Below are positions 178 through 56,763 of a stretch of 64,000 nt of DNA, one piece after another; the stretch's first letter is position 1; each line of letters opens with the position of its first letter. A model generated the notes under the pieces. It was not told the origin of the DNA. It was given only the letters and a program-made list of their open reading frames with translations, and made no database searches. The position numbers were made by a program, and so were the translations under genes. This DNA is from a virus, in the IMG/VR virus record IMGVR_UViG_3300012148_000003. One strand, 5' to 3'.

Positions 178-184
178 TAAAATA

Positions 185-242
185 ATTAGGGGCAAATTAG
201 GGGCAACAATTAGGGGCATAATTAGGGGCAGAATTAGGGGCA
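185..242 (+). repeat. Five copies of ATTAGGGGCA; probable integrase arm-type sites
   Basis: Copies start at 185, 196, 209, 221 and 233, immediately after the integrase stop. Function is inferred. Confidence 0.8.
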
Positions 243-246
243 GAAT

Positions 247-1434
247 TTAAATGCTTGGAATTTGGGACATAATATTTTTCTTTTGCTCCATTATGACGTG
301 AACATACCTATTATACGTGGTGGAAATATTTCTATGCCCTAGCAAATTACTGACAATGCTTACTTCAACGCCTCTACGAATTAATGTTGAGGCAAAGGTG
401 TGACGCAATCCGTGGATTCCAATTCGTTTAATCCCGGCAGCACCACAAATGCATTCAAGAGTGCGGAATAAATTCCTTTCGGTAATATGATCACCGGATT
501 CTGATGAAATTACATGATTTGTAGATATACCTCTTTCGTTATTATAAGCTTTAATTTGCTCAAGGGCAGTAATTGCCTTTTCATTTAATGGTATTACACG
601 TTTGCTTGATTCCGTCTTTGTTTGTGCAACTAACTTTTCCCGCTTTCCTGCTTTCCAGTTTTTATCTCGTTGTTTGACCAGAGAAAGATTCTTGGAAATC
701 GTACATTCCTTTTTTTCAAAATCGATGGAATCCCAATCCAGAGCCAATGCTTCTCCACATCTAATACCTGTATTCAAGATAAAGACAATAGCCGGAGCAT
801 GCTTGTAAAAATGATTTTCACTTTCGGCAATTGATTTACAGAAATCATAGAGCTTCTTGATTTCATCGTCATCAAATATTACTATTGGCTTGGTTTGTAT
901 TTCCATATTTTCTTCTCTTGGTAATTCTACAGCATCACATGGATTAATGGTAATTGAACCTTTGTTTTTCATATGCTTAAAAAAACCATTTAGAAATTGA
1001 AAAATTTTTTTAATATAAGAATAACTTAGTTCTTGAGATTTCCTATTGATTAATAACTGCAAATCATCACTCGTGATTTGACTCCATGGAATGAAACCTA
1101 ATTCGTCCTTTATATGACACTGATAGGTGGTTTCTATGCGATCCCGTGAACTACTGCGTATTTGTGGAAATTTGTAAGTGTACATCCAATGTTCAGCCAT
1201 TTCCCAAAAGGGAGTATCATCCACTATTTGATTAAATTTCTTGCGGTCAGAGTTATATTCACGAATCTTCCTATTCAATTCCTTTTCTGTTTTAGCCTGT
1301 AGATATTTATACTTGCTTTTACCATTGATTGTTCCCAAAAAGATCTTAAATTCCCAACGCCCATCCTTTTTTAAAGTAATTGTACCTTCGCCATTTCTTC
1401 TTTTCTGTATTTTTGCATTTGTCTCTTCTTTCAT
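247..1434 (-). CDS. int: Tyrosine recombinase (phage integrase)
   Basis: N-terminal arm-binding RRNGEG; catalytic TGIRCGE, HGLRHT, LGH and Y motifs; 395 aa. Confidence 0.95.
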   Translation of the reverse strand: MKEETNAKIQKRRNGEGTITLKKDGRWEFKIFLGTINGKSKYKYLQAKTEKELNRKIREYNSDRKKFNQIVDDTPFWEMAEHWMYTYKFPQIRSSSRDRIETTYQCHIKDELGFIPWSQITSDDLQLLINRKSQELSYSYIKKIFQFLNGFFKHMKNKGSITINPCDAVELPREENMEIQTKPIVIFDDDEIKKLYDFCKSIAESENHFYKHAPAIVFILNTGIRCGEALALDWDSIDFEKKECTISKNLSLVKQRDKNWKAGKREKLVAQTKTESSKRVIPLNEKAITALEQIKAYNNERGISTNHVISSESGDHITERNLFRTLECICGAAGIKRIGIHGLRHTFASTLIRRGVEVSIVSNLLGHRNISTTYNRYVHVIMEQKKNIMSQIPSI

Positions 1435-4065: not shown

Positions 4066-5994
4066 CTAATCTTTCTTCATATCAGCATAAGAGTACCACT
4101 GTCTTGTAGAAAATTCTCTTTTTCTATCCTTGGAATAAGTTCTCACTGGCTCAAGGAACCCGACGATTCTTTGATATGTATCCATTATTCCACAGCTACA
4201 AATTGGGCAAATATCAGTTCCTACAAAACCATGGTGATTTTCGCATTCATTTATCCTTGTGTTAAATGCAAAATATATAACTCCTGATTTAGCAATTTTG
4301 TTTAACATATCCCAAGCAACATCTTTATTAGGGAAGTTATTATCAAGGTTAATGTGAGCAATTGCCCCACCAGAGCATTTAATATCCAATATAGAACTCA
4401 GCCTTAATTTTTCTTGAATTGTACATTTTTCTGATAACGGAATCCATTGATTAGAATAAATAAATCCATCTTTCTCTTCATAAAGCAAATTATCTTTTTG
4501 ACAAAGTATTACCGCCGCCCGTTCCGCAGGTACACTCTCAACATTAAATGAATAATTATCAGTAAAATTATCTTTAATGTTATTGATTGTTTCAAAAATC
4601 AATGAAGCAAATTCAATCCCCTCATTATTATAATAGATGTTTTCAAACTTATCTTTATATGTAAACCCAAAAGATTCAATCACCTCAAACAAACCAAGAA
4701 TTCCAATTGTACAATATTGCTTGTCTAATTCAACTCCTCCATCACAATAGTTTGGTAGTAATCCTTTTTCAACATTACGAGAAATAATATGTCGAATTAC
4801 ATCTAATACTTTACAACACAAAAGTACCCGTTTTTTTAGCAATGAGATATATTTCTTTTTGTCAAAATTTGCTTCGAATGCTATTCTCATCAGATTGATT
4901 GTATTGACTTTGACAGATCCTATTGATAATGCAGTGCCACCAATTGAATTTATGAATCCATTTAATTTAGTGCTGTCACTTAAAAGCCGACAACAATTAG
5001 ACAATACTCCTACATTATCACTCATGAAAAAGTTACTATCATTCCAAGCTGTGTTATGATCTGAACACCACCTTGCAAATTCCTGGTCAACGAAATTATC
5101 CTTCTCATTCTTAAGTAATGAATATGTAAGTACCGGAAAAGTGAATAGGTTTTCGCTACGAATATCAGATACAATCTCCATAAATACTTTTTGATGATCA
5201 ATTAGTTCATCTACATAATCAATAGCGTATGTTCCATCTGGAAATTCAACACCACCAAATAAACCTTCAATATATGGTCTGTCAAATATTGATACATTGA
5301 CGAACGCCGACTGGTCAATTCTCATGAATGGCTGATTCAATCTGTAAATCAGCTTTTGAAATGATTGTCTTATATAATAGTCTGGATTTCTAATTACATA
5401 ATTTTCGTTACAATCCTTTTTCCAGAAATAAAATGTCCATAAAAGAAGATTAGGGATACCACATGCACCAGAGCTTCTATTACTCATAAATGAAATAAAT
5501 TCAATTACATCATCTATAAACGTTGTAAGATGTTTTGGAGGTTGATTATTATAATTTTCTAAAAAGAATAATCCTTCCTTTGCTAATCTTGTTAAATCAT
5601 ATGCATAACAATAAGGCATATATGTAGCTGTTGATGAGTCATGTAAATAGTAAGATCCATTATATTCACAATCTAACCACTCCTTTGCGCTTTTTAAACC
5701 ATATTTTTTCTTCATTTCATAGAAAATTTTATTAAACGCAAACAACTTGTCTTCTGATTTACCTTTTTCACTCATCATACTTCTAATATCTTTGTGTGAA
5801 GCATTTGCATTACTATCTATGGTAACATCAGTCACATTATTATCCACAAAACCGTCAATAAAATCAGAGAAATTTAATTGTGATTCATGAAAACCATTCA
5901 AGATTTCAAAGTCTTCTCCGTACTTGCTGCTTAATGCCATATATGTTCTTTCAAAATCCTTATTTACCTTAATAGGTATATTCATCATAATCAA
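4066..5994 (-). CDS. nrdD: Class III anaerobic ribonucleotide reductase without ATP cone
   Basis: NCCRL active-site cysteines, ESVPAE, C-terminal Zn site and glycyl-radical RIVGF motif. Confidence 0.93.
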   Translation of the reverse strand: MIMMNIPIKVNKDFERTYMALSSKYGEDFEILNGFHESQLNFSDFIDGFVDNNVTDVTIDSNANASHKDIRSMMSEKGKSEDKLFAFNKIFYEMKKKYGLKSAKEWLDCEYNGSYYLHDSSTATYMPYCYAYDLTRLAKEGLFFLENYNNQPPKHLTTFIDDVIEFISFMSNRSSGACGIPNLLLWTFYFWKKDCNENYVIRNPDYYIRQSFQKLIYRLNQPFMRIDQSAFVNVSIFDRPYIEGLFGGVEFPDGTYAIDYVDELIDHQKVFMEIVSDIRSENLFTFPVLTYSLLKNEKDNFVDQEFARWCSDHNTAWNDSNFFMSDNVGVLSNCCRLLSDSTKLNGFINSIGGTALSIGSVKVNTINLMRIAFEANFDKKKYISLLKKRVLLCCKVLDVIRHIISRNVEKGLLPNYCDGGVELDKQYCTIGILGLFEVIESFGFTYKDKFENIYYNNEGIEFASLIFETINNIKDNFTDNYSFNVESVPAERAAVILCQKDNLLYEEKDGFIYSNQWIPLSEKCTIQEKLRLSSILDIKCSGGAIAHINLDNNFPNKDVAWDMLNKIAKSGVIYFAFNTRINECENHHGFVGTDICPICSCGIMDTYQRIVGFLEPVRTYSKDRKREFSTRQWYSYADMKKD

Positions 5995-19308: not shown

Positions 19309-22300
19309 TTATGCAACTCCTTTCTGTCTCTTTATATCTGCTAACCACTGTTGGTATGGCTTGATTTTTTCAGCAATAACCTTTTCTTCGGAATCTTTTT
19401 TACAATACATTGCTATCTGCTTTCCTTTCACAATTAAATCTTCATATTCCTTCAATTGTGAATGCCAAATAATTGCCTCTGTAAGACCAAATGAGGAATA
19501 AATATTAGCATAAGCAAATGTTTTCTTATTCTTATCCTTTTTCTTCTGTACCTTTGCTACAATTCCAACAATAGTACACATTTCTCCGGCTTCAACTTCT
19601 TCAAACTCTTTTGACATAAACGAATATGCTTGTTCGAAAGGATTATCATTTATAAAAATTTGCAATGCTTCAAATTCCCAAAACTCTTCATTTTGTAAGT
19701 ATTTGCTGTTTTTATCAATATATTTTTGATACCTTATTTCTTGTTGCTGTTTGAATACTTCTTCTTTTTTCTTATTAAATACTTCTAATATTTTATCTTT
19801 ATTGTAATCGTATCTCTTTAAACCATTTCTGTATTGTTCAACATCAATTTCCCATTTCATTAATAAATCATCATAAGATGGTGCTTTAGCAACCGGCTTA
19901 AAAGTTAATGGTTCGTACATTGATTTGAGATATTTAATTAAAAATTGTCTCTTGTCCTTTGTAGGAATAGCACCAGCTTTTACCAAAGCAATTATTTGTG
20001 CTTTTGATGGCTCAACCCTGGTCTTAAAATCTTTAAACCCATCAAATAAACCATCTAATCTTTTCATGATAATATCACTTGCTACTTTTACTCCAATTCC
20101 CGATATTGCAGATAAACCAAATAAAATACTGTCATTGCTAATCGAAAAATTAATTTCCGACTTGTTTATATGCGGTGGTAATACTTTTATAAAAAATTGC
20201 CTTGCATCAATGATATATTTATTTATCATCCCGGCCTTGTCCTTGTTAAGATTAAACAAAGCCTTAAAAAAATACAATGTATGGTAAATCTTTAAGTATG
20301 CAGTTTGAAAACAAAGCACAGCATAACTGTATGAATGACTCTTATTGAAGAGATAACCACCCTTCTCTGATAGTTCACTGCTGATAGTTTTTGCAATTTC
20401 TTCACTATAACCATTGTCGATAATTTCTTGATACAGTTTTTCAGACTCTTTTTTAACTAAATCTTTATCTTTTTTTCCTATTGCTTTTCTAAACAAGTCT
20501 GCTTCACCATAGCTTCTACCACCAAATTTTCTAACAATATCCAATAGTTGCTCCTGATAGATCATACAACCATATGTACTTTTAAGAATTGGCTCCATGT
20601 CCGGATGAATATACTTAATTTTACTTGGATCGTGTTTGCACTCAATGTATTCTTCCAATGCTCCCATAGAATCTGGCCTATACAATGCAAGAACTGCAGA
20701 CAAGTCTTCTAATGTAGTTGCTTGCAGCCGGATTAATAAATCTTTCATCCCAGCACTTTCTACTTGGAATACGCCGTTTGTTTGTGCCTTGCCCAATAAT
20801 TCAAATGGTACTATATCATTTTCAAATGTGGGGTTATTAATGTTAATGTCATATTCTGAAAGCTTAAGATCACTTATAATTTCTTTTACAAGATTTAATG
20901 TCTGAACACCAAGAATGTCAAATTTAATAATTCCAATATCCTCAATAATTCTCTTATCTACTTGTATTACGTGTTCACCTTCAGAACCAAGCTTCATTGC
21001 CATATAATCATCAATATCCGTGTCTACAATACCAACCCCTCCAGCATGACATGATACTGTTTTAACTCGTCCACTAAGATGACCTGCAATATCAAATAAT
21101 TCTATATACTGAGGATTATCTTGTACAAGCGATTTATTATTATCAAGGCATTCTTGAAATGTATCATAAACAAACTTTTTGCTTAACTTATCCATTTCTG
21201 AATATCTAAAGCCAAGGACTTTTCCAACATCTTTAATTGCAACAACAGGTGTTATATAAGAAAAATTAATAATTTGACATACTCTGTTTTCACCATATTT
21301 ACTGATTAGATAATCAATAACCTTTTCTCTATTAGACACATCTGTATCTGTATCTGGTAGCGAAATACGTTCTGGATTTAGAAATCTTTCAAATATCAGT
21401 CCATATTTAATGGGGTCTAAATCAGTAATTTTTAGTAAATAACAAACCAAACTACCGGCGCAACTTCCTCTTCCACTTCCTACCATAACATCATTTTTTC
21501 TGGCATAATCTATGAAGTCCCATACTATAAGAAAATATCCATCATATCCCATATTATGAATTGTGTCTAACTCATAGTTCAGGCGATTCTCATATTGTTT
21601 TTTCTTCTCATCATCAAACTTATCAAATCCTCTTTCTTTCCATCCCAGTTTTGTTAGATATTTTAGATATTCATAATTATCGTCAAATTCACTCGGCAAG
21701 GGAAAGGTTGGTAATTGTGGTTCTTGAAAAGGCATATTTACCGTATCAATTAAATCTGCAACCTCATCTGTTCTTAATAAACCAATAGCAACTGCTTCTT
21801 TTCCGATCTGAGAATCCATAATCTCGTGTATTTCTTCATCCGATTGTAAATAACACCCCTCATAAATTTCACTCGTTGTTTCTGCATCGTGAGCTATCTG
21901 AACATGGCGGCCTTGATATACTAAATCATCTTTGGTTGCTGCATGACTATCACAAGTAATTATGTACGGAGTGCCTGTATCTTGTGATAACTTTAATATT
22001 TTCTGATTATAAGTAATTTGATCCGGGTGGCTATGAGACTGCATTTCTAAATAAAAATATGGAAATACACGTTTGTATTCTTCAATGTAATTTATGCATT
22101 TTGTGTAATTATTTTCAATTGCAAGCTTGGAAGCCAAACAAGCAGAAGATACCACTAAATCTTTACCATATGGTTTCATTTCGTCCAGGGAGATTCTTGG
22201 CTTGAAATAAAAACCATCCAAATTACTTTTTGTTACTAATTTATTAATTGCTTTTCTACCAGATTCATTTTTGGCAAGTACAATTAAATGAAAATATTTA

Positions 22301-22539
22301 CTTTCCTTATCTTGCACACTCATATCAAAGCATTCATAAAATTCAACACCATATATTATTTTTATATCAGGATAATCTTTACGCAATTTATCATAATAAC
22401 ACCAAGAATATTCATTCCCATGATTAGTTGTAGCAAATGCTTTTAAGCCTAACTCTTTTGCTCTTTCAAGATTTTCCTTTGGTGTTGCATACCCATCAAG
22501 TAAACTGTACATATCATGACAGTGTAACGCACTACTCAA
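19309..22539 (-). CDS. dnaE: DNA polymerase III alpha subunit
   Basis: PHP domain (HCHDMYSLLDG), GRGSCAGS, PDTDTD, FNKSHS; no intein seen. Confidence 0.95.
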   Translation of the reverse strand: MSSALHCHDMYSLLDGYATPKENLERAKELGLKAFATTNHGNEYSWCYYDKLRKDYPDIKIIYGVEFYECFDMSVQDKESKYFHLIVLAKNESGRKAINKLVTKSNLDGFYFKPRISLDEMKPYGKDLVVSSACLASKLAIENNYTKCINYIEEYKRVFPYFYLEMQSHSHPDQITYNQKILKLSQDTGTPYIITCDSHAATKDDLVYQGRHVQIAHDAETTSEIYEGCYLQSDEEIHEIMDSQIGKEAVAIGLLRTDEVADLIDTVNMPFQEPQLPTFPLPSEFDDNYEYLKYLTKLGWKERGFDKFDDEKKKQYENRLNYELDTIHNMGYDGYFLIVWDFIDYARKNDVMVGSGRGSCAGSLVCYLLKITDLDPIKYGLIFERFLNPERISLPDTDTDVSNREKVIDYLISKYGENRVCQIINFSYITPVVAIKDVGKVLGFRYSEMDKLSKKFVYDTFQECLDNNKSLVQDNPQYIELFDIAGHLSGRVKTVSCHAGGVGIVDTDIDDYMAMKLGSEGEHVIQVDKRIIEDIGIIKFDILGVQTLNLVKEIISDLKLSEYDININNPTFENDIVPFELLGKAQTNGVFQVESAGMKDLLIRLQATTLEDLSAVLALYRPDSMGALEEYIECKHDPSKIKYIHPDMEPILKSTYGCMIYQEQLLDIVRKFGGRSYGEADLFRKAIGKKDKDLVKKESEKLYQEIIDNGYSEEIAKTISSELSEKGGYLFNKSHSYSYAVLCFQTAYLKIYHTLYFFKALFNLNKDKAGMINKYIIDARQFFIKVLPPHINKSEINFSISNDSILFGLSAISGIGVKVASDIIMKRLDGLFDGFKDFKTRVEPSKAQIIALVKAGAIPTKDKRQFLIKYLKSMYEPLTFKPVAKAPSYDDLLMKWEIDVEQYRNGLKRYDYNKDKILEVFNKKKEEVFKQQQEIRYQKYIDKNSKYLQNEEFWEFEALQIFINDNPFEQAYSFMSKEFEEVEAGEMCTIVGIVAKVQKKKDKNKKTFAYANIYSSFGLTEAIIWHSQLKEYEDLIVKGKQIAMYCKKDSEEKVIAEKIKPYQQWLADIKRQKGVA

Positions 22540-22560: not shown

Positions 22561-24351
22561 TTACCAAACATCTTCTTCGTCTTCTTGATCTGTTTTATTG
22601 ATCACAACCAAATCTTGAATAACTATCTGCATTGTTTTAACTCCGTTATATTCGTTTACCATTGGCTTTCCTACTATATTGAATGTAATATTATTTTCGT
22701 CATCCCAACAAGTGTTCAACCAATCAAACAATTCATTTCCCTCTTTACATTTAAACTGAACGTATTCAATATCTCCAACTTTAAATTTAATGGTATCTGA
22801 ATTTTTCCCGATAATATCAAGTTCAACTCTGTCAAGTGATATGTTTTCAATTGCCAACATTGGTTCATTAATGCCCTGTCCAATAATATCGGAAAATTGA
22901 TTTAAGTCAACAATCAGTTTTGCTGTTACTTCGCTAATATCCAATATATAATCACAGCGATATGTAGAGTCATATTCTACATCTTGCAGTATATAGTTTA
23001 AGGAATTGATTGCTTCATCAAGTTTATCAATATCTAGGTTTACACCAAAGGCATTTGCATGCCCTTTCCCCCAATTAAATGCACTTGAACTATTGATAAC
23101 ATCCTTAAAACTATCAATTGGACTATGATCTATATTTCTTGCACTACCACCATAAACTAACCTTTCCATAGTTGTTTTTTTCTTATCATCTTTTTTTACT
23201 GTTTCTATGTATTGGTTTAAAAGTATACATGGTTTGTTGAATAGCTCTGCTATTTTCATTGCTACTAATCCACTCAGTCCATTATTCAATAAATTAGTGA
23301 CATCCAATATGGTTATCTTGTTATCATTTGGTGTTTTCTTTATGATTTCAACAATTTTATCAACACTTTTCTCTTTTAATTTGTCCTGTCGGCTTTTTGC
23401 ATTTTTACTTAATCTAACAGCTTTATCATAAATACTTTCTTGAATTATTTCTGATGGTTTATCCTTTCTTGCTCGTGTTTTATATTCAAAAAATTCATCT
23501 TGCTCTATGAACGATCTAAATAATAATTCTTTTTCTTCTTGATCTCCAATGCGGATCATTCCATTGATAACTGGTGTAATATACCATTGGATATTATGAA
23601 TATTTATCCTTCCATTCATACTATAATTCTGTGCTTCTATAAAAGAGGAGAAGCATTTGTTTCTTATATTACTAAGACCTTTGTTAATAATACGTTTAGT
23701 TTCAAGAGAGCGAATATCCATCACGTCACTTATATTCGCTAATGCACACAAATCCAAATAATTATCTGCATATTCATTCCAAAATCGTTCATCTAACGCT
23801 TGCAGAAATTTATATACAATACCAGCTCCACAAAAATCCTTATTTGAGTATGACTTACTCATTTGATTATTGACAATTATTGCATGCTCATTATCTTCTT
23901 CTTTTTCGTGATGGTCTAAAATAATAATATCGATTTTAAGTTTCTCACACTGTTCAGAATCATTTGTTCCTGCGTCTGGAATAATAAGTAGCTTAATATC
24001 ATCAGTAATAATAACATCGTTACTTAAACCATGTGCCTTATTCTTACCATGTAAAATGTATTTAACTGGGTAATTAGGATTCATTTCTTTTATGTATGAA
24101 TACATCATACCCGCTGAACAGAAGCCATCTACATCTTCATCAACAAGAATAGCTATAGTATTTTCATTTTCATAATGCTTTTCAAAACAATCAACAGCTT
24201 CATCAATATTATCCAATTTTTTATATGGAATAATTACACTGTCATCTAAATTCATATATCTATAACAATCAGTAATTCCTCTATTTTCTAATACTGTCTC
24301 CAATACATTTGATTTACTGCTTTTACTGCCGTCATATAATCTGTATTGCAA
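22561..24351 (-). CDS. recJ: RecJ-like ssDNA exonuclease (DHH family)
   Basis: DEDVDG, PDAG, LDHH, CGAG, GSAR and GHANAFG motifs. Confidence 0.92.
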   Translation of the reverse strand: MQYRLYDGSKSSKSNVLETVLENRGITDCYRYMNLDDSVIIPYKKLDNIDEAVDCFEKHYENENTIAILVDEDVDGFCSAGMMYSYIKEMNPNYPVKYILHGKNKAHGLSNDVIITDDIKLLIIPDAGTNDSEQCEKLKIDIIILDHHEKEEDNEHAIIVNNQMSKSYSNKDFCGAGIVYKFLQALDERFWNEYADNYLDLCALANISDVMDIRSLETKRIINKGLSNIRNKCFSSFIEAQNYSMNGRINIHNIQWYITPVINGMIRIGDQEEKELLFRSFIEQDEFFEYKTRARKDKPSEIIQESIYDKAVRLSKNAKSRQDKLKEKSVDKIVEIIKKTPNDNKITILDVTNLLNNGLSGLVAMKIAELFNKPCILLNQYIETVKKDDKKKTTMERLVYGGSARNIDHSPIDSFKDVINSSSAFNWGKGHANAFGVNLDIDKLDEAINSLNYILQDVEYDSTYRCDYILDISEVTAKLIVDLNQFSDIIGQGINEPMLAIENISLDRVELDIIGKNSDTIKFKVGDIEYVQFKCKEGNELFDWLNTCWDDENNITFNIVGKPMVNEYNGVKTMQIVIQDLVVINKTDQEDEEDVW

Positions 24352-25405: not shown

Positions 25406-26962
25406 TTATTCACTAGTTTTCTGTTTCTTAACTAAATATCCTATATTATCCCAGATGTTATAGTTCAAATCGATTTCAAAAGCCATAACCTTATCTTTAT
25501 CACCATCTCTATTCTTATCTGGTTTAATCGCAAAATATTGTTTGGAATAATCTAAGTCTGTTTTTATGGGAGTTCCCCATGAGCCATCCTCGACCACTAC
25601 TTGATATTTATGGTATTCACTCCTATCAAGTTTCTTCCCAAGCGTAAGTGCATCTGTTACATGTTTTATTCCCTTTGCCCCAGCGATATTGTTACTACTA
25701 AGACTGAATATATCTGTAAAGACTGTATCATCTGTAAGCTGAAACACAATAAATCCTGATAATCCGAGTTCTTTTGTTATCTCCTTAATTCTGGTTGCGC
25801 TTTGTTTTATTGAACTCCAGTCCTCTGTCCGAAAGCCCTTTAAAGTATCATAACCGTAGTATGTTCCATTCATTGCAGCTTTATATTTTCGTAGTTCAAA
25901 TTCAACACGTGTGTCACTATAATCATCTCCAATGTCTTTAAAAAGAAGTTTTCCATTATCATGATCATCAATCCATTTTGCTACTTTAACAATATCCCAA
26001 TATTCATCAGAGTTATTTTGTATTCTGTTCAGGAAGTCATCTTTGGTTTCAATATAATTACCATCATCATCAATTTTTCTTCGTATAACATCCCCACTTC
26101 TATCCTTATATACTCCTAACTTGATCTCCTTTTCAGGTTTCAATAGTTTAACACCATGCACTTCTTTAAACTCTTTGTTGTTTAAGACTGTTGGAATAAG
26201 ACAACTCCTTAACTTTTTCTCACTCATCTCATTGCTCAAAACAAGAAAACTTTTATTTTGAACCAATGTAACATAGGCTGCAAGCTTCATTAATTTTCTC
26301 GTCTTTCCTTCATTACTAAGAAACCCTTCGAGAATAATATCTTCGTCCAATAACCCCATAAACATTTCATTATATAAATACCACGGTGTTAATAATCCCA
26401 TCATTGGCACATCAATATAAGAATTAAGCGTGTTTACATTATTTTTTGAAAGCTCTACCGCCTCCTCCCCGGCATTAATAACTGTATTGATTTTATCTGC
26501 CTTAATTCTGATTATCCTGTAAATATCATTGGCAGTTAAAGAATCAAATCGTTTATGGGCTAAAATCTTATCAACCGGAAATCCATTTCTTTCATACTCA
26601 CGGAGTAACGAATATTTCTTTATGATGTTAAAGTAATTGTCAACATCATTTATATCAGCAAGTTTAATAAACCTTTGAATAGTATTCCAGCCTTTATACT
26701 GCCTATATTGTCGAAGTCTCTCATCATTTTGACTCATGAAAACATTACATTTTGTTTCATCAACTGATTGAGAAAAGGTCAGATAATAAGTTTCTAAATT
26801 GTCATAGAAAAACCGTGTTGCTTCATCAAAAAAATCATATTTTGACCTCATATAATTACCATAATTTATGTATAAATCTGGATTACTATAAAGAGCACCT
26901 ATGAAACACATCTCTGATTGAACATTTGTAGTTCGTAATTCACAATCACCATTCAAATGCAC
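25406..26962 (-). CDS. dnaB: DnaB-like replicative helicase
   Basis: N-terminal SEMCFIGAL, SNEGKTR Walker A, SNEM, FQL, KNRDG. Confidence 0.88.
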   Translation of the reverse strand: MHLNGDCELRTTNVQSEMCFIGALYSNPDLYINYGNYMRSKYDFFDEATRFFYDNLETYYLTFSQSVDETKCNVFMSQNDERLRQYRQYKGWNTIQRFIKLADINDVDNYFNIIKKYSLLREYERNGFPVDKILAHKRFDSLTANDIYRIIRIKADKINTVINAGEEAVELSKNNVNTLNSYIDVPMMGLLTPWYLYNEMFMGLLDEDIILEGFLSNEGKTRKLMKLAAYVTLVQNKSFLVLSNEMSEKKLRSCLIPTVLNNKEFKEVHGVKLLKPEKEIKLGVYKDRSGDVIRRKIDDDGNYIETKDDFLNRIQNNSDEYWDIVKVAKWIDDHDNGKLLFKDIGDDYSDTRVEFELRKYKAAMNGTYYGYDTLKGFRTEDWSSIKQSATRIKEITKELGLSGFIVFQLTDDTVFTDIFSLSSNNIAGAKGIKHVTDALTLGKKLDRSEYHKYQVVVEDGSWGTPIKTDLDYSKQYFAIKPDKNRDGDKDKVMAFEIDLNYNIWDNIGYLVKKQKTSE

Positions 26963-27695: not shown

Positions 27696-28862
27696 TCATG
27701 TTGAAATTACTTTAAGTACCTTGTTTAGAATGTTTACATCAACAACATTTTTAAACGCCGTAGGAAGTCCTTCCTCCTCTAATTTTTTCTTTGCGGCTGC
27801 CTTTGGCTCTGGGGTTAGTGATTTTAAAGTGGTAATAATCTGTTCACGGATTGTATCAGCTTCAGAGCTTTCAGCTGATTCACCTGCGGTATTTTCAAAC
27901 CTTTCTACTGGTTTTCCAACTTCTCCTAAAATCTCTTTTCTATAGATATCCTGCTCTATACCGACTGCGTTTGTTAAATCATTCTTCAATACAAATGATT
28001 TTTTATTAGCAGTTTTGTCAATTATTACTTGCCAATCCAGAAGAGTCGGATCTTCAATAATTTCATTTTTCTTATGTACACCTGTTCTATCCTTTTCTAC
28101 AAATGCACATACCTGTCCCGTTTCAGAATCAACAAATGTTCTAATCACAGTCTTGGCATTATAATCCATTCCTTTAAAACCATCAGGAATTTTTTTACCA
28201 GTCGCGACACTTTCTCGTTTTCCTTCTATTTCTTTTGTGATTTTTTCATCTGTCTCTCTGGCTGTTGCAATACAATGTACTCCGGAGGCCATCAAATCTA
28301 AAATTAAGTCTTGACCCTTAAAATTTACTGTCTGATAATCTTTTAACTCTAAACCTGCACCTTCAATTTTTACAAGTTTAGCATCTCCAATAAGACCATC
28401 TTTCTCGGCTTTTACTTTATTTCTTTTCTTTGAAAATTCAACCAGGCCTTGTTTGGTTGTCAAATTTAAAATTGAAGTACCATCTACTACAATTGCATCT
28501 GCTCTGAACGGTTCACCGTCAGCGTCCACTACAATTTCATCAGTTTCGTTACCATCATCGTCTAATTCATAAAAGTCTTCATTGTTTTTTACTTTTGAAA
28601 TATACTGCCTGATTTCTCCTAATGATTGCGTATAAACAATGTAAATATTATCAAGATTCACACCATCTTCCTGTAAATCAGCTAAAAAGTCATCAACTGA
28701 ACCGCTTTCCGGATCGAGATACAACACTCTAAACGGTTTATTATCGGGACGTTTAAAATACGCTAATTGTAATGACAATGTTGACTTTCCGGTAAATGGT
28801 TCACCAAATAAAATCATCATTAATTTACTTTGTGTTACACTTGCTTTTCTTGCTTTTGCCAT
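27696..28862 (-). CDS. AAA ATPase (Sak4/AAA_24-like)
   Basis: GEPFTGKS Walker A, LDPESG, IVVDG, ARETDE. Confidence 0.8.
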   Translation of the reverse strand: MAKARKASVTQSKLMMILFGEPFTGKSTLSLQLAYFKRPDNKPFRVLYLDPESGSVDDFLADLQEDGVNLDNIYIVYTQSLGEIRQYISKVKNNEDFYELDDDGNETDEIVVDADGEPFRADAIVVDGTSILNLTTKQGLVEFSKKRNKVKAEKDGLIGDAKLVKIEGAGLELKDYQTVNFKGQDLILDLMASGVHCIATARETDEKITKEIEGKRESVATGKKIPDGFKGMDYNAKTVIRTFVDSETGQVCAFVEKDRTGVHKKNEIIEDPTLLDWQVIIDKTANKKSFVLKNDLTNAVGIEQDIYRKEILGEVGKPVERFENTAGESAESSEADTIREQIITTLKSLTPEPKAAAKKKLEEEGLPTAFKNVVDVNILNKVLKVIST

Positions 28863-46930: not shown

Positions 46931-46959
46931 ATGATAACACACTTTCCATATCTTGTCAA
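46931..46959 (-). promoter_or_regulatory. Promoter of the RNA island: TTGACA-N17-TATCAT with TG
   Basis: -35 at 46954-46959, -10 at 46931-46936. Confidence 0.7.
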
Positions 46960-46979
46960 TAAGAATTTTTATTGTTTTA

Positions 46980-47005
46980 CGAACATTTTTTCGAACATTT
47001 TTTCG
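46980..47005. promoter_or_regulatory. Two overlapping LexA-box-like 14-mers CGAACATTTTTTCG
   Basis: Copies at 46980 and 46992; one mismatch to GAAC-N4-GTTC. Confidence 0.5.
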
Positions 47006-52824: not shown

Positions 52825-52980
52825 TTGACATACGGGAAAATATTAGATATAATATGTATGCATGGTTCTCCATGTGTCTAAAACATCTACAGGCTTCTAT
52901 GCTTGTCAAATGTTCAAGACTATTTTGTGTGAGGAGTTGTCCGAGGTTGTCAGGCCGTTTGAGGATGACTCCTTTAAAAA
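52825..52980 (+). ncRNA. Candidate ~120-nt antisense sRNA with a perfect sigma-A promoter
   Basis: TTGACA-N17-TATAAT (52825-52853); 3' hairpin GGAGTTGTCC/GGATGACTCC. Confidence 0.6.
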
Positions 52981-53294
52981 TTTATATGTAGGCAAATATA
53001 TTTTGTAACACTATATGTAATTGTAGCAAGAATGTAATTTTTTTTGGTAATAAAGTCAATACCATCATCAATACATATCTGTTTAATATTTTCTAATGGT
53101 ATTTTGAAATTTTTAAATCCTCCATCATCTCCTTCTCCATTTAAAATGATTCTTTCATCTTTCCTAATATACATAACATCTTTCAGTTTATATTCTGCAA
53201 TATCCTTGCCGGTTATTGTTTTTATGTTACACTGCTGCCCCTCATGTATGGTTAGTATTTCAACAAGTTCTTCTTGTGTTACTAATTTTATCAT
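52974..53294 (-). CDS. Hypothetical protein, first gene after the SOS-box promoter
   Basis: 106-aa ORF with GGAG RBS. Confidence 0.65.
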   Translation of the reverse strand: MIKLVTQEELVEILTIHEGQQCNIKTITGKDIAEYKLKDVMYIRKDERIILNGEGDDGGFKNFKIPLENIKQICIDDGIDFITKKNYILATITYSVTKYICLHINF

Positions 53295-53326: not shown

Positions 53327-53381
53327 CGAACACGTGTTCTTGTGTAAGGTATATAATAATACAGATTCATCATTTTGTCAA
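53327..53381 (-). promoter_or_regulatory. Promoter TTGACA-N17-TATTAT with downstream LexA (SOS) box CGAACACGTGTTCT
   Basis: -35 at 53376-53381, -10 at 53353-53358, box at 53327-53340. Confidence 0.75.
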
Positions 53382-53413: not shown

Positions 53414-53599
53414 TTAAAATGAACTTTCTGGTATGAGAAGAAAATCAGACGTGAAAATATCAATATTAATATCAGCGTTAAATGCAGCTATGGCCCTAGC
53501 GATACGCAACGTGCATTCTTCATCACCTACTGCCCTAGCACCTACATAAGCAGTCTCCAAATAATCATTAATAAGTCTCATTTGTTCTATTTCTTTCAT
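53414..53599 (-). CDS. Hypothetical protein
   Basis: 61-aa ORF with RBS. Confidence 0.6.
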   Translation of the reverse strand: MKEIEQMRLINDYLETAYVGARAVGDEECTLRIARAIAAFNADINIDIFTSDFLLIPESSF

Positions 53600-53637: not shown

Positions 53638-54618
53638 CTACCGTGACTGGTAGTATTTACTTTTTACAACAAATGGAATAAGTGAATCTACAAAATCACT
53701 AGTATTCCTTCCTCCATATACCTTCATAACCGCTCTTACACCAGCGGCCTCTTTCCGAGTCAGCTTTTTTAAGTATTCCTTAAAGAATATTTTACAGAAC
53801 TCGGAATTATCAAGTTCCTTAAATTCTTTTCTAAGAGCATTTAATGCCCCTGATTTTGTTACATCAAAATAAGACAGTCCTATCTTTTTCAGTAATTTTT
53901 GACATCCGATCCCTTTTCCGCTTATAAATTGCTCATCCGTAATATCCGGATTGTAATAAGTATCAGTAACTTTTAACAAAAAATCTTTATGCTGGACACA
54001 TCCTGTCGTGATTATTGATGTATCTGTTCTTTGAATTTCGTATTCATCGACATTTTTGTATTTTTTGATCGCTTTTATGGAAAAGGCAGAGAGAGGTATT
54101 TCTCTCTCTTTAATTTTTATCTTCCTATTATAAAGATCAATCTGCCCCCATCGTATGGATGTTAATTCTCCCAAATTTGCAACTCCATCATATGACAATC
54201 CAACGATCAATGCACATAATTCCTTATTACATATAGAACGATTCGAGTATCCTCTTAACTCGTAATCGTAAATTACTGTAACTGCGCTTTGTTCTGCCAT
54301 TTGGTACAACAAATTATTATATGATAAGTGTTCTAGTTCCTTATATGGATTGACTTCAATATATTTGTTTTCCGAGCACCATTCAAAAAACGTTGAAATC
54401 CGCAGATAGTTCTGTTTGAAAGACAAGGCACTTTTACTGCTGCTTATTTCTAAAATCAGATTACCTAATTCGTATGGCAACAAATTGAATAGGTCTTTTT
54501 CATAAATCTCCGGCTTTAAAAAAAATGCTTTATCATTCTTACTTATTTTTTTTTCCTCACAAAATTCATTAATTAATACTTTATAATTGTAATCATTGGT
54601 AAAATTATCCATACTCAC
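53638..54618 (-). CDS. Tyrosine-recombinase-fold protein with degenerate catalytic motifs (possible repressor)
   Basis: SAM-like core (FFEWC..NPY) and GVANLGEL..IRW..ID; catalytic R and HxxR are absent. Confidence 0.7.
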   Translation of the reverse strand: MSMDNFTNDYNYKVLINEFCEEKKISKNDKAFFLKPEIYEKDLFNLLPYELGNLILEISSSKSALSFKQNYLRISTFFEWCSENKYIEVNPYKELEHLSYNNLLYQMAEQSAVTVIYDYELRGYSNRSICNKELCALIVGLSYDGVANLGELTSIRWGQIDLYNRKIKIKEREIPLSAFSIKAIKKYKNVDEYEIQRTDTSIITTGCVQHKDFLLKVTDTYYNPDITDEQFISGKGIGCQKLLKKIGLSYFDVTKSGALNALRKEFKELDNSEFCKIFFKEYLKKLTRKEAAGVRAVMKVYGGRNTSDFVDSLIPFVVKSKYYQSR

Positions 54619-54621
54619 ACA

Positions 54622-54670
54622 AGCTCTGTATCTTATGATTTTAATCTTAAGAACAGAGCTGTACTCCTTT
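54622..54670 (-). promoter_or_regulatory. Shine-Dalgarno separated from the start codon by a 39-nt hairpin
   Basis: AAAGGAG-TAC-[AGCTCTG...CAGAGCT]-TGT-GTG. Confidence 0.65.
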
Positions 54671-54700
54671 CTGTTAATAATTGGCTGGGGATTTGTATGG

Positions 54701-54729
54701 ATAATAACATTTTTCTCCTTTCATGTCAA
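54701..54729 (-). promoter_or_regulatory. Promoter TTGACA-N17-TATTAT with TG
   Basis: -35 at 54724-54729, -10 at 54701-54706. Confidence 0.7.
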
Positions 54730-54762
54730 TAAGAATTTTTATTGTTCACGAATGTTGATATC

Positions 54763-55602
54763 TTAATAAATGCTGGGTATTTTTTCCCTCATCTCTTTTA
54801 AACGTCTATCTCTTATACCCACATAATGTTCCGTACTCTTCCTGTTTTCGTGACCAAGAAAAACACTGGAATAATATATTGCTTCATCGTAATCATCAAG
54901 ATTTGATTCTAACAATCTTATAACACCAGTTTTTCTATTTCCATGGGTTCCAATAGACCTATTTATACCGGCAGCCTTGATCATCTTTGTACATATCCTC
55001 CACCACTGTACCCGGGACATCCCAGATACTTCCGGATTGTTAATTTGTTTATGACTAATAAATACATAATCCTCTAATTTAGGAGTTAATCCTTGCTCTT
55101 TTTGTAAAATCAAAAAATCATCCATGGCATTTCTGAAATCGTTGGTGTAATCGACTGGTACTGGAGCACCGTTTTTACTAATCCTTTTCGTAAAATTAGT
55201 TTGATAATTCCAATTTGCATCGAAGATGTCTTTATATTTGTAATCCAGAAAATCCGTAGCCCTAAAACCAACAACAATAGCACATACAAACATACAAAGA
55301 TTTCTTCTGGCATCCCACTGCTTTGATATAGTCTTAGCTTCTATAATTTGTTTTTTGTATTGCTCTAAGACCAAACTTAATTCTTTTTCTGTTAAATGAT
55401 CTGTCCGGTTAGAACCCGTGTAACAACGATTTGATTCACCTTCCTGATTCACTTTAAAGCGTCTGTCCGGTGTTCCGTCCGAATTTAGATGAATCTGATA
55501 ATCAGTAATTTTTACTACTTTATTTTCTTGTTCCTTTAAAGTTAGAATTTCAATGTCTTTATTTTCTAACTCTTGTTTGTTTCTTTTAATAGGCTGCCCC
55601 AT
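54763..55602 (-). CDS. Second tyrosine recombinase with an apparently intact catalytic set
   Basis: GFRATD, K, HGNRKT, LGHE, TEHY. Confidence 0.85.
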   Translation of the reverse strand: MGQPIKRNKQELENKDIEILTLKEQENKVVKITDYQIHLNSDGTPDRRFKVNQEGESNRCYTGSNRTDHLTEKELSLVLEQYKKQIIEAKTISKQWDARRNLCMFVCAIVVGFRATDFLDYKYKDIFDANWNYQTNFTKRISKNGAPVPVDYTNDFRNAMDDFLILQKEQGLTPKLEDYVFISHKQINNPEVSGMSRVQWWRICTKMIKAAGINRSIGTHGNRKTGVIRLLESNLDDYDEAIYYSSVFLGHENRKSTEHYVGIRDRRLKEMREKIPSIY

Positions 55603-55628
55603 GGTTGTACCTCCTTAATAGTTTCAAA

Positions 55629-55946
55629 TTATTCTCGATACTTTGGTATTTTAGGAATTTTAGGAATCAACATTCGTTTTTCTGTTCCCATGGCCTGTAT
55701 ATTACACGGATTTTGATAACAACTGTAAAAACTCATTTGGTTAAAAATACCTTTGTGAAATAATATAATTGTTTTTGCTTCATCTGCCATTTTTTTACTA
55801 CCAGCAGCGGAGCAACATATGAACTTTTCATTAATACTTATATTAGCAGCGTGGTTTATCGTGGCAACTTGAAGTGTGTCTGTTTCAAGTGCGTCGTAAA
55901 CATCATCGATATATTTCTTAGCATCTTCCCTTGTCATCTTCTTCAT
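55629..55946 (-). CDS. Hypothetical protein directly downstream of mazF
   Basis: ATG 55946, one nucleotide after the mazF stop. Confidence 0.55.
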   Translation of the reverse strand: MKKMTREDAKKYIDDVYDALETDTLQVATINHAANISINEKFICCSAAGSKKMADEAKTIILFHKGIFNQMSFYSCYQNPCNIQAMGTEKRMLIPKIPKIPKYRE

Positions 55947-55947
55947 T

Positions 55948-56337
55948 CTACATTGCATATTCAAAATCCTCCTCAATAGTCTCACTGCTAACCAATCCCG
56001 CCGAGAAAGCATTAATGATTTGCTTTTTCGTATCATAATCACTTATGTGTCCGATCTTATTTCTTAAACGATTTTTGTCAACCACTCGTATTTGCTCCCC
56101 CAGTACCGTAGAATCTTCTCCCAACCAATTGTAATTTGCTTTTTTCACAAGAACATGCGTTGGGAGATACAGTTTTTTACGGCCATGAGTAAGTCCTACA
56201 ACTATAGTCGTTGGTGAATTAATATTACCCTTATCAATCTGAACAATAATACACGGACGTACTTTACTTTGTTCTGACCCAAGAGCATCATTTAGATCAA
56301 CCCAAAAAACATCAAATGCTCTAATGTCTTTATTCAT
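55948..56337 (-). CDS. mazF: MazF/PemK-family endoribonuclease with no adjacent MazE
   Basis: GSEQSKVRPCIIVQ..GN..SPTTIVVGLT, EQIRVVDK.RL..KIG. Confidence 0.9.
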   Translation of the reverse strand: MNKDIRAFDVFWVDLNDALGSEQSKVRPCIIVQIDKGNINSPTTIVVGLTHGRKKLYLPTHVLVKKANYNWLGEDSTVLGEQIRVVDKNRLRNKIGHISDYDTKKQIINAFSAGLVSSETIEEDFEYAM

Positions 56338-56381
56338 ATAAGTATATCTCCTTTCTTGTGATTTTATATTCTCTTATCATT

Positions 56382-56478
56382 ATTGTAAATCATTTCATTA
56401 TACTTGTCAAGTGTTTTATGTTACAAGTCAAACAATTTACTTTATTTATTTGACTTTCTGCTTCATTTATCTTATTAT
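56382..56478. promoter_or_regulatory. Divergent promoters of the switch
   Basis: Minus strand TTGACA(56405-10)-N17-TACAAT(56382-87); plus strand TTGACT(56450-55)-N17-TATTAT(56473-78). Confidence 0.7.
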
Positions 56479-56511
56479 AAAATAAAAACCATAAATCAGA
56501 GGTGTTTTGTA

Positions 56512-56736
56512 ATGATTCTATATAAAAATAATGAACAGTTAATCGCCGAATTAAAAAAAATATATATTACAGAAAATATTACAGCAACACAAGTTGCGAC
56601 TACCATGGGTATGACTCGCCAGGGTTATCATACATTAACCAAAAAAAAGAATTTCGCTTTTGCAGATATGAAACGTATTTGTGATGTAATAGGTTATGAT
56701 TTAAAAATTGAAATTTCTCCAAAAGAACAAGTATAA
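56512..56736 (+). CDS. XRE-family HTH regulator (repressor candidate)
   Basis: GAGGTG RBS before ATG 56512; TATQVATTMGMTRQGYHTL..DMKRICDVIG. Confidence 0.8.
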   Translation: MILYKNNEQLIAELKKIYITENITATQVATTMGMTRQGYHTLTKKKNFAFADMKRICDVIGYDLKIEISPKEQV

Positions 56737-56763
56737 AAACAAATAATTTACTCTTGTTCTTTT
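56721..56763. terminator. Bidirectional terminator
   Basis: 11-bp stem AAAAGAACAAG/CTTGTTCTTTT. Confidence 0.75.

Follow-up and report, generated by a model that had tools for sequence, protein, structure and literature searches.

The viral record IMGVR_UViG_3300012148_000003 (IMG/VR) was analysed as one stretch of 64,000 nucleotides (nt), here called the window. The proteins it encodes are found on contigs of up to about 64 kb, which marks it as a metagenomic phage fragment; it probably comes from a phage of an anaerobic Firmicute, with a G+C content of about 32% and nearly all genes on the minus strand. The locus described here contains five genes. A small XRE-type regulator gene (74 amino acids, aa) on the plus strand faces, across a pair of divergent promoters, the genes for a MazF endoribonuclease (129 aa), a 105-aa partner protein, a short tyrosine recombinase (279 aa) and an integrase-fold protein (326 aa), the last of which has a promoter of its own. 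A first-pass annotation had proposed these five genes, the facing promoters and the promoter of the 326-aa gene, and all of them were found where it had placed them. On profile and fold evidence the 326-aa protein is a homologue of the SroF/MrpR (YopR) repressors of Bacillus phages, and the four genes upstream of it have been exchanged as a block between the window and a near-identical relative (contigs L003 and L011, from IMG/VR and ENA). With moderate confidence, the region is read here as a mosaic of a SroF-type lysogeny repressor and a portable, three-part, MazF toxin-antitoxin-like cassette. The positions of all features are collected in Table 1.

The predicted repressor gene and its surroundings

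Profile comparison and predicted fold clearly identify the 326-aa protein as homologous to SroF from phage phi3T and to MrpR (YopR) from SPbeta. This kinship of a degenerate recombinase-fold gene to the SPbeta repressors had been suggested in the first-pass annotation, and the structural comparison with YopR bears the suggestion out. The protein scores 18.5 bits against the Pfam integrase model, below the cutoff of 27.1. An exhaustive HMMER search yielded a family of 28 representatives of 308-355 aa, save for two tail matches of about 600 aa, and the profile of this family aligned to SPbeta YopR with 94.3% probability (E 1e-7) over 224 collinear columns in hhalign. As controls, the same profile gave 0.6% with YopP, and 80% over only 103 columns with the true integrase of the window. 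The AlphaFold2 model (predicted local distance difference test, pLDDT, 93.7; predicted template modelling score 0.88) has a two-domain tyrosine-recombinase fold with a core-binding and a catalytic-like domain. When this model was compared with 350,542 PDB chains in Foldseek, the best seven matches were all SroF or MrpR (E 1e-8 to 2e-6), namely phi3T SroF (9rgl, 9rd5) and SPbeta MrpR/YopR (8a0a, 8bpz, 8bj6), followed by XerA (7e-5) and then by Tn1549 Int and Cre. The Foldseek alignments span about 320-340 columns, and the template modelling score with DNA-bound SroF is 0.64. Only the first catalytic arginine (Arg I) was mapped in the profile alignment, and its position is taken by Ala147, which accords with the loss of catalytic residues in MrpR, where just E, K and Y are retained among the seven (PMC10516654).

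Pairwise BLAST of the 326-aa and 279-aa proteins against YopR and YopP gave nothing significant, and the link to YopR emerged solely from profile and fold. Related-locus searches with the same two proteins returned one near-identical contig and nothing else. More distant members of the 326-aa family belong to prophages that also have genes for a YonO-type RNA polymerase and for YomU/V/W. The repressor gene is preceded by the promoter TTGACA-17-(TG)TATTAT; gene callers choose an ATG at 54612 as its start, which gives a protein of 324 aa. A 23-nt block at this promoter, TGTCAATAAGAATTTTTATTGTT, recurs identically at the promoter heading an island of transfer RNA and structured-RNA genes (two exact copies against 0 expected). 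It consists of a -35 element and the near-palindrome CAATAA-N6-TTATTG, and its presence at both promoters suggests a site for a shared regulator. Adjoining the promoter of the RNA island are two overlapping copies of CGAACATTTTTTCG, each a half-match to a LexA box.

On the downstream side of the repressor gene lies a consensus promoter with a Cheo/LexA-type box, CGAACACGTGTTCT, immediately behind it; the window contains 4 matches to such a box (with at most one mismatch) against 0.28 expected. The gene behind this box encodes a protein of 106 aa, is 100% identical in L003 and lies two genes after the repressor gene. In phi3T the same position relative to sroF (phi3T_97) is held by the LexA-controlled antirepressor gene sar (phi3T_99). 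The 106-aa protein showed no sequence similarity to any PDB chain, Sar included, so that the parallel is one of position. By this analogy the gene is a candidate for an SOS-controlled antirepressor.

The XRE-MazF-partner cassette

The MazF protein scores 84.5 bits against the Pfam family PemK_toxin (cutoff 23.1). It matches the MazF structures of Staphylococcus aureus and Bacillus subtilis at E 1e-20 to 1e-22 and PHROG 1936 ('MazF-like growth inhibitor') at E 1.5e-25, and is about 45% identical to S. aureus MazF over 110 residues. The GSEQ-x3-RP motif is retained, and R27 and T50 align to the conserved Arg and Thr, which we take to be the catalytic residues as in B. subtilis MazF. With its family score and both residues in place the toxin appears intact, as had been thought, and it is conserved at this position in L003. 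No MazE/AbrB-type gene was found upstream of it on the same strand, which agrees with the claim that a MazE-like neighbour is missing. The label 'orphan', which the first-pass annotation had also given to this MazF, fails because the 105-aa open reading frame (ORF) directly downstream is a conserved, translationally coupled, MazF-linked partner.

The partner starts with an ATG 1 nt after the MazF stop codon, and several of the loci show either a spacing of 1-3 nt between these two codons or an overlap. When IMG/VR was scanned with an alignment of MazFs, 80 loci emerged, mostly on contigs of 70-180 kb, which contain 49 distinct MazFs. A member of the partner family lies immediately downstream in 19 of these 49 loci. 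None of the 19 has a small ORF on the same strand in the position of MazE, against 11 of the 30 others. When the window protein was left out of the family profile, it still matched that profile at 94.4% (E 8e-8, 89 columns, hhalign). Members are about 90-105 aa long and directly follow a distinct clade of MazF in many large phages of Clostridia and Lachnospiraceae; the cultured or binned genomes that carry the cassette are those of Lachnospiraceae, Lacrimispora and other Clostridia, with Lachnospiraceae isolates represented by L096 and L097. In the 176-kb gut phage MT835469.1, for instance, a divergent XRE gene and MazF are accompanied by an overlapping 92-aa ORF that has motifs in common with the small ORFs of the window and L003. 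In a maximum-likelihood tree, a branch (support 91-93/81-85) separates 19 of 20 partner-linked MazFs from all 10 MazFs with an ORF in the MazE position, with 3 label changes against 15.0 in shuffles. The MazF of the window lies within the clade of partner-linked phage MazFs. Because relatives share labels by descent, the tree shows clustering and not co-evolution.

The AlphaFold2 model of the partner is a compact, folded alpha/beta domain (pLDDT 87.9). Neither Pfam, PHROG nor PADLOC has a model for the family, and PHROG 1936, a group of phage morons, covers the toxin alone. Foldseek returned nothing from the PDB at E <= 0.001, and the profile matched no PDB sequence below E 0.47. In a wide VIA-align search the best match was to a designed protein (Z 6.0), and matches to HutX-like proteins were weak (Z 4.4-4.9). 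The ESM Atlas gave no usable match, comparison with SPbeta YosL and YopN gave no signal, and a word-based protein search recovered only the 105-aa ORF itself. A complex prediction for two MazF chains and the partner scored 0.01, which is below the mark and gives no verdict, being evidence for neither side. As in type II toxin-antitoxin pairs, the partner is conserved, adjacent to the toxin gene and co-transcribed with it. From its sequence and linkage it is a candidate cognate inhibitor (antitoxin) of MazF in reversed gene order.

The divergent promoters consist of P(mazF), TTGACA-17-TACAAT, and, facing it, P(xre), TTGACT-17-TATTAT. An 11-bp palindrome, ACTTGACAAGT, overlaps the -35 element of P(mazF), and consensus promoters with inverted repeats also precede mazF in the relatives L003 and L019. 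Upstream of the partner-linked MazFs, a divergent XRE gene is present at 12 of the 19 distinct viral loci and at each of the 4 genome loci. The 74-aa XRE protein is the probable transcriptional regulator of the cassette and would act on P(mazF).

The sense strand of the operon contains UACAU, a putative cleavage motif of the MazF described here, once, against 4.9 expected at the density of the window. The deficit has a Poisson P of about 0.04 before correction for scanning. It was not significant in codon-shuffle controls, the motif is just as scarce in the regulatory DNA nearby, and depletion as an operon-specific signal was set aside as weak.

Two further genes for possible regulators lie close by. 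Directly upstream of the cassette lies the gene for a 254-aa protein that combines a receiver-like N-terminus with a LytTR DNA-binding domain; the gene is 96% identical in L003, no kinase gene was seen in the window, and the protein may link the phage to peptide signalling of the host. A larger XRE-type protein of 170 aa has a C-terminal helix-turn-helix domain and matches PHROGs of CI-like repressors at E 1e-14 to 1e-15, which makes it a candidate for a further regulator in the region.

Exchange and distribution of the cassette

The relative L003/L011 is near-identical to the window and has the same architecture, with one block exchanged. In the flanks, the LytTR gene, the repressor gene and the 106-aa gene are 96%, 98% and 100% identical between the window and L003. 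Within the block, identity falls to 39% for MazF, about 22% for the partner and 57% for the recombinase, and the XRE proteins are not alignable; the partner thus diverges along with MazF. The XRE gene, MazF, the partner and the 279-aa recombinase have been exchanged as one portable block.

Cassettes of this kind also occur within chromosomes, on large contigs of 299 and 525 kb. Downstream of the cassette, most other phages encode a conserved protein of about 205-243 aa and then sigma-70-like (r2/r3) and DUF262/GmrSD_N-like proteins, as in L023 (5150-8002), L029 (5077-7239) and L014 (10065-12627); in some cases these are fused into one protein of 700 aa. The independent assemblies of the relative, L011, L012 and L003 (79-kb and 60-kb contigs), share an end point that lies about 3.6 kb downstream from the repressor gene, where the window continues. 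Their common end may reflect a genome terminus, a repeat or a place where the sequences diverge.

The short recombinase

The 279-aa protein scores 41 bits against Pfam Phage_integrase (cutoff 27.1). All positions of the R-(D/E)-K-H-R-(H/W)-Y set except the Lys were mapped, to R114, D117, H220, R223, H251 and Y260, and these residues are invariant in three homologues, except for H251, which is Gln in L003. On this evidence the earlier description of a catalytically complete tyrosine recombinase holds. Residues 1-88 gave no family match. Members of its family are 254-281 aa long and are found near the cassette in L014, L029, L043 and L097-L099, usually at a distance of 1-2.5 kb on the upstream side of the XRE gene; a position downstream of the cassette is confined to the window and L003. 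In other cassette loci an integrase of 326-349 aa takes the place of this recombinase. The protein had also been compared to YopP, and an equivalence of the two finds no support: hhalign gave 1.3% for the family against YopP, with no specific similarity, and what the two have in common is the general fold and the position upstream of the repressor. Weak matches to XerD, XerS and FimB/E types were obtained, and a resolvase, an invertase or a second integrase are candidate roles. An invertible promoter around the gene was considered on account of a perfect 12-bp flanking inverted repeat and was rejected, such repeats occurring about once per 6 kb by chance and this one being absent in L003.

Setting in the window

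The tblastn search matched the SPbeta proteins YorI, YorK (35% identity, full length), YorL, YorR and YosS (63%) in the window in SPbeta order. The order shared with the early region of SPbeta is YopR-type repressor, YorI, YorK, YorL, YorR, nrd and YosS, and the window is therefore collinear with that region. A DNA search with the region against phage records gave zero matches. Just past the stop codon of the full-length integrase gene are six direct repeats with a 12-nt period, AATTAGGGGCA, which look like attP arm-type integrase binding sites.

Table 1. Positions of the genes, promoters and repeats discussed, by coordinate in the window
Feature	Position	Strand	Remarks
Six direct repeats, 12-nt period (AATTAGGGGCA)	182-247		resemble attP arm-type sites
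Full-length integrase, 395 aa	247-1434	minus	PHROG match
Anaerobic NrdD	4066-5994		PHROG match
PolIII-alpha-like polymerase	19309-22539		PHROG match
RecJ-like exonuclease	22561-24351		PHROG match
DnaB-like helicase	25406-26962		PHROG match
Sak4-like protein	27696-28862		PHROG match
23-nt block TGTCAATAAGAATTTTTATTGTT, first copy	46954-46976		promoter of RNA island
Two overlapping copies of CGAACATTTTTTCG	46980-47005		LexA-box half-matches
106-aa gene behind LexA-like box	52974-53294	minus	candidate antirepressor by position
Promoter and Cheo/LexA-type box	53327-53381	minus	TTGACA-17-TATTAT (53381..53353); CGAACACGTGTTCT (53327-53340)
61-aa ORF	53414-53599	minus	between repressor gene and SOS-boxed promoter; position of phi3T_98; kept in L003
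326-aa SroF/MrpR(YopR)-family integrase-fold protein	53638-54618	minus	profile and fold match
Repressor gene promoter and 23-nt upstream block	54701-54746	minus	promoter 54729..54701; second copy of TGTCAATAAGAATTTTTATTGTT 54724-54746
279-aa short tyrosine recombinase	54763-55602	minus	Pfam Phage_integrase
105-aa MazF-linked partner	55629-55946	minus	unnamed alpha/beta family
MazF/PemK endoribonuclease, EndoA type, 129 aa	55948-56337	minus	Pfam PemK_toxin
Divergent promoter region, 174-bp gap	56338-56511		between XRE gene and mazF
P(mazF)	56410..56382	minus	
Palindrome ACTTGACAAGT, 11 bp	56402-56412		overlaps -35 of P(mazF)
P(xre)	56450..56478	plus	
XRE gene, 74 aa	56512-56736	plus	most likely ATG start (56512) with Shine-Dalgarno; Pfam HTH_26 E 1e-3
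LytTR-domain protein, 254 aa	56890-57654	minus	
XRE-type protein, 170 aa	59625-60137	minus	

Comparison with known systems

The 326-aa protein resembles SroF of phi3T and MrpR (YopR) of SPbeta (PDB 9RD5, 9RGL, 8A0A, 8BJ6) in its near-equal length (326 against 325 aa), in the two-domain tyrosine-recombinase fold, in the apparent loss of Arg I, in having its own promoter and in its place upstream of an early and replication region collinear with that of SPbeta. As in the phi3T SroF locus, a small gene, here behind a LexA-like box, lies two genes downstream. It differs in sequence, with just about 17-18% identity, and in its probable host, a Clostridia-type anaerobe where the known systems belong to Bacillus; in addition, no SroE/YopQ gene adjoins it.

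Taken as a unit, the locus resembles the sroABCDEF operon (yopMNOPQR) in that several genes end in an integrase-fold repressor, a second integrase-family gene is present and a small helix-turn-helix gene adjoins on the opposite strand. Unlike in sroABCDEF with aimR-aimP-aimX, tblastn with AimR, AimP, YopM-Q, YopS and YosL found nothing in the window. The first-pass annotation had already seen no arbitrium aimR or aimP genes, and this stands; a homologue of the whole sro operon is not supported, since no homologues of YopM, YopN, YopO and YopQ were found in the window. MazF and its partner fill the place of sroA-C, and the 279-aa recombinase, unlike YopP/SroD, has kept its catalytic residues.

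The toxin itself is a clear homologue of that of the MazEF (EndoAI/EndoA) pair of B. subtilis and S. aureus, with the motif and the Arg and Thr kept. Unlike in MazEF, the pair is phage-borne, no MazE lies upstream, a separate XRE gene is transcribed divergently, and the candidate inhibitor is placed downstream, folded according to its model and unrelated to MazE, AimX and YosL. Three-component toxin-antitoxin systems with a separate regulator include omega-epsilon-zeta and paaR-paaA-parE. The proposed split into regulator (XRE), inhibitor (partner) and toxin (MazF) would be analogous to these; the protein families and the gene order differ, and the regulator is here transcribed divergently.

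Interpretation

As a mosaic, the region would consist of two units. In the first, the 326-aa protein would be the SroF/MrpR-type master repressor of the phage, having apparently lost at least the first catalytic arginine. It would be made from its own strong promoter and, with DNA binding predicted from homology and fold, most likely silences the downstream early and replication genes in the lysogen. The LexA-boxed promoter with the 106-aa gene would occupy the place of Sar, the SOS-controlled antirepressor of phi3T. The second unit, upstream of the repressor, comprises the divergent XRE gene, the EndoA-type MazF, the coupled partner of about 100 aa and the short, apparently catalytically complete recombinase. 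Of these, XRE, MazF and the partner would form a three-part toxin-antitoxin-like cassette with MazF as the toxin. The downstream partner would replace MazE as inhibitor, and XRE would supply the DNA binding that the partner lacks. Such a cassette would be expressed from the prophage, most likely for its maintenance (addiction) or for the exclusion of other phages.

Several points weigh against this interpretation. The binding and neutralization of MazF by its partner is something that we infer rather than observe directly, and the partner is a well-folded domain with no known fold relative, unlike the partly disordered antitoxins of the MazE type. The tree and the linkage counts draw on related sequences whose labels are shared by descent. 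SroF/MrpR repressors bind a long operator that recurs at many sites of the phage genome, and no such multi-copy array of SPBRE-like operators was found in the window, where searches for exact k-mers and for intergenic 14-mers with up to three mismatches gave only Shine-Dalgarno-like words. The divergent XRE protein could itself be the immunity repressor of the phage, with MazF as the first gene of an early operon, since sigma-like and DUF262/GmrSD-like genes come after the cassette at most other loci. The adjacency of the MazF-partner pair to SroF-like genes in two lineages also hints at more than chance linkage.

The strongest alternative, still rather unlikely in our estimation, is that MazF is a phage-owned arm of the lysis-lysogeny decision. 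In the model for SPbeta and phi3T, lysogeny is favoured by host MazF, which AimX and YosL bind and which SroB frees from MazE; phi3T requires host MazF for lysogeny, and phage proteins bind it (PMC10769878; bioRxiv 10.1101/2025.11.27.690993). Here, MazF and a dedicated inhibitor would replace this axis of host MazEF, AimX and YosL. The MazF-partner pair would head a transcription unit running into the SroF gene, with XRE, and perhaps LytTR, setting a balance that decides between survival of the lytic transcripts and their destruction as the repressor builds up. The EndoA type of the phage MazF fits such a role, as does the absence of aimR, aimP and yosL homologues from the window. The UACAU deficit points in the same direction, subject to the weakness described above. 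In L019, XRE, MazF and the partner are followed by an SroF-like gene (311 aa, E 4e-26 with the A1 hidden Markov model) with its own promoter, and no recombinase lies between. A co-oriented MazF-partner pair thus stands directly upstream of an SroF-like gene in two lineages, that of the window and L003 and that of L019, whose repressors are only distantly related, and it is because of this arrangement that the alternative retains some probability. Against it, no SroF-like gene was found within the 8 kb of sequence examined in 17 of the 19 distinct viral cassette loci, and none of the 6 more distant SroF relatives examined has MazF upstream. The MazF block is usually found where SroF is not, and SroF relatives usually have no MazF with them. 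In addition, the block has been swapped independently of the repressor, which has its own promoter.

It is a good deal less probable that MazF is an early lytic nuclease for RNA turnover or host shutoff. XRE would then be an immunity repressor of the CI type, and MazF, as the first early gene in the 'Cro position', would cut host or early phage messenger RNAs after infection or induction, timed or limited by its partner. The swapped block would be a heteroimmune immunity region, and its exchange between otherwise identical phages does resemble that of immunity regions. The conserved divergent layout of XRE and MazF, with operator-like palindromes over the mazF promoter, and the early-looking sigma-like and DUF262/GmrSD-like genes after most cassettes would agree with this. 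There is also a precedent in RegB of phage T4, a toxin-fold endoribonuclease that acts on early messenger RNAs. Such a scheme is opposed by the presence of an SroF-type master repressor with its own promoter, and by the XRE protein, which at only 74 aa lacks an oligomerization or cleavage domain.

Plasmid-style maintenance, in which the short recombinase would be an Xer/Cre-like multimer resolvase and MazF with its partner a post-segregational killer for an episomal prophage, is very improbable: the recombinase does travel with the cassette and weakly matches XerD, XerS and FimB/E types, but the full-length integrase and the six attP-arm-like repeats next to it point to chromosomal integration, chromosomal contigs contain related cassettes, and no partition genes were seen in the window.

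Implications

SPbeta-family phages depend on host MazF for lysogeny, and in this phage a MazF sits directly before the repressor gene; the locus therefore offers a direct test of toxin-antitoxin modules in phage decision circuits. If MazF were indeed an arm of the decision, large SPbeta-like phages of gut Clostridia would have made a toxin-antitoxin pair, with an inhibitor of a new fold, a working component of their lysis-lysogeny switch rather than carrying it as a passenger. The SOS-boxed small gene kept at the antirepressor position is likewise a testable candidate for an antirepressor. Repressors of the SroF/MrpR type are a recently described, non-CI route to dormancy and have so far been studied only in Bacillus; with the mosaic described here, they extend to phages of anaerobic gut Firmicutes. 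If the partner is the inhibitor of its MazF, it would represent a new type of antitoxin for one of the best-known toxins, common in gut phage contigs of 90-180 kb.

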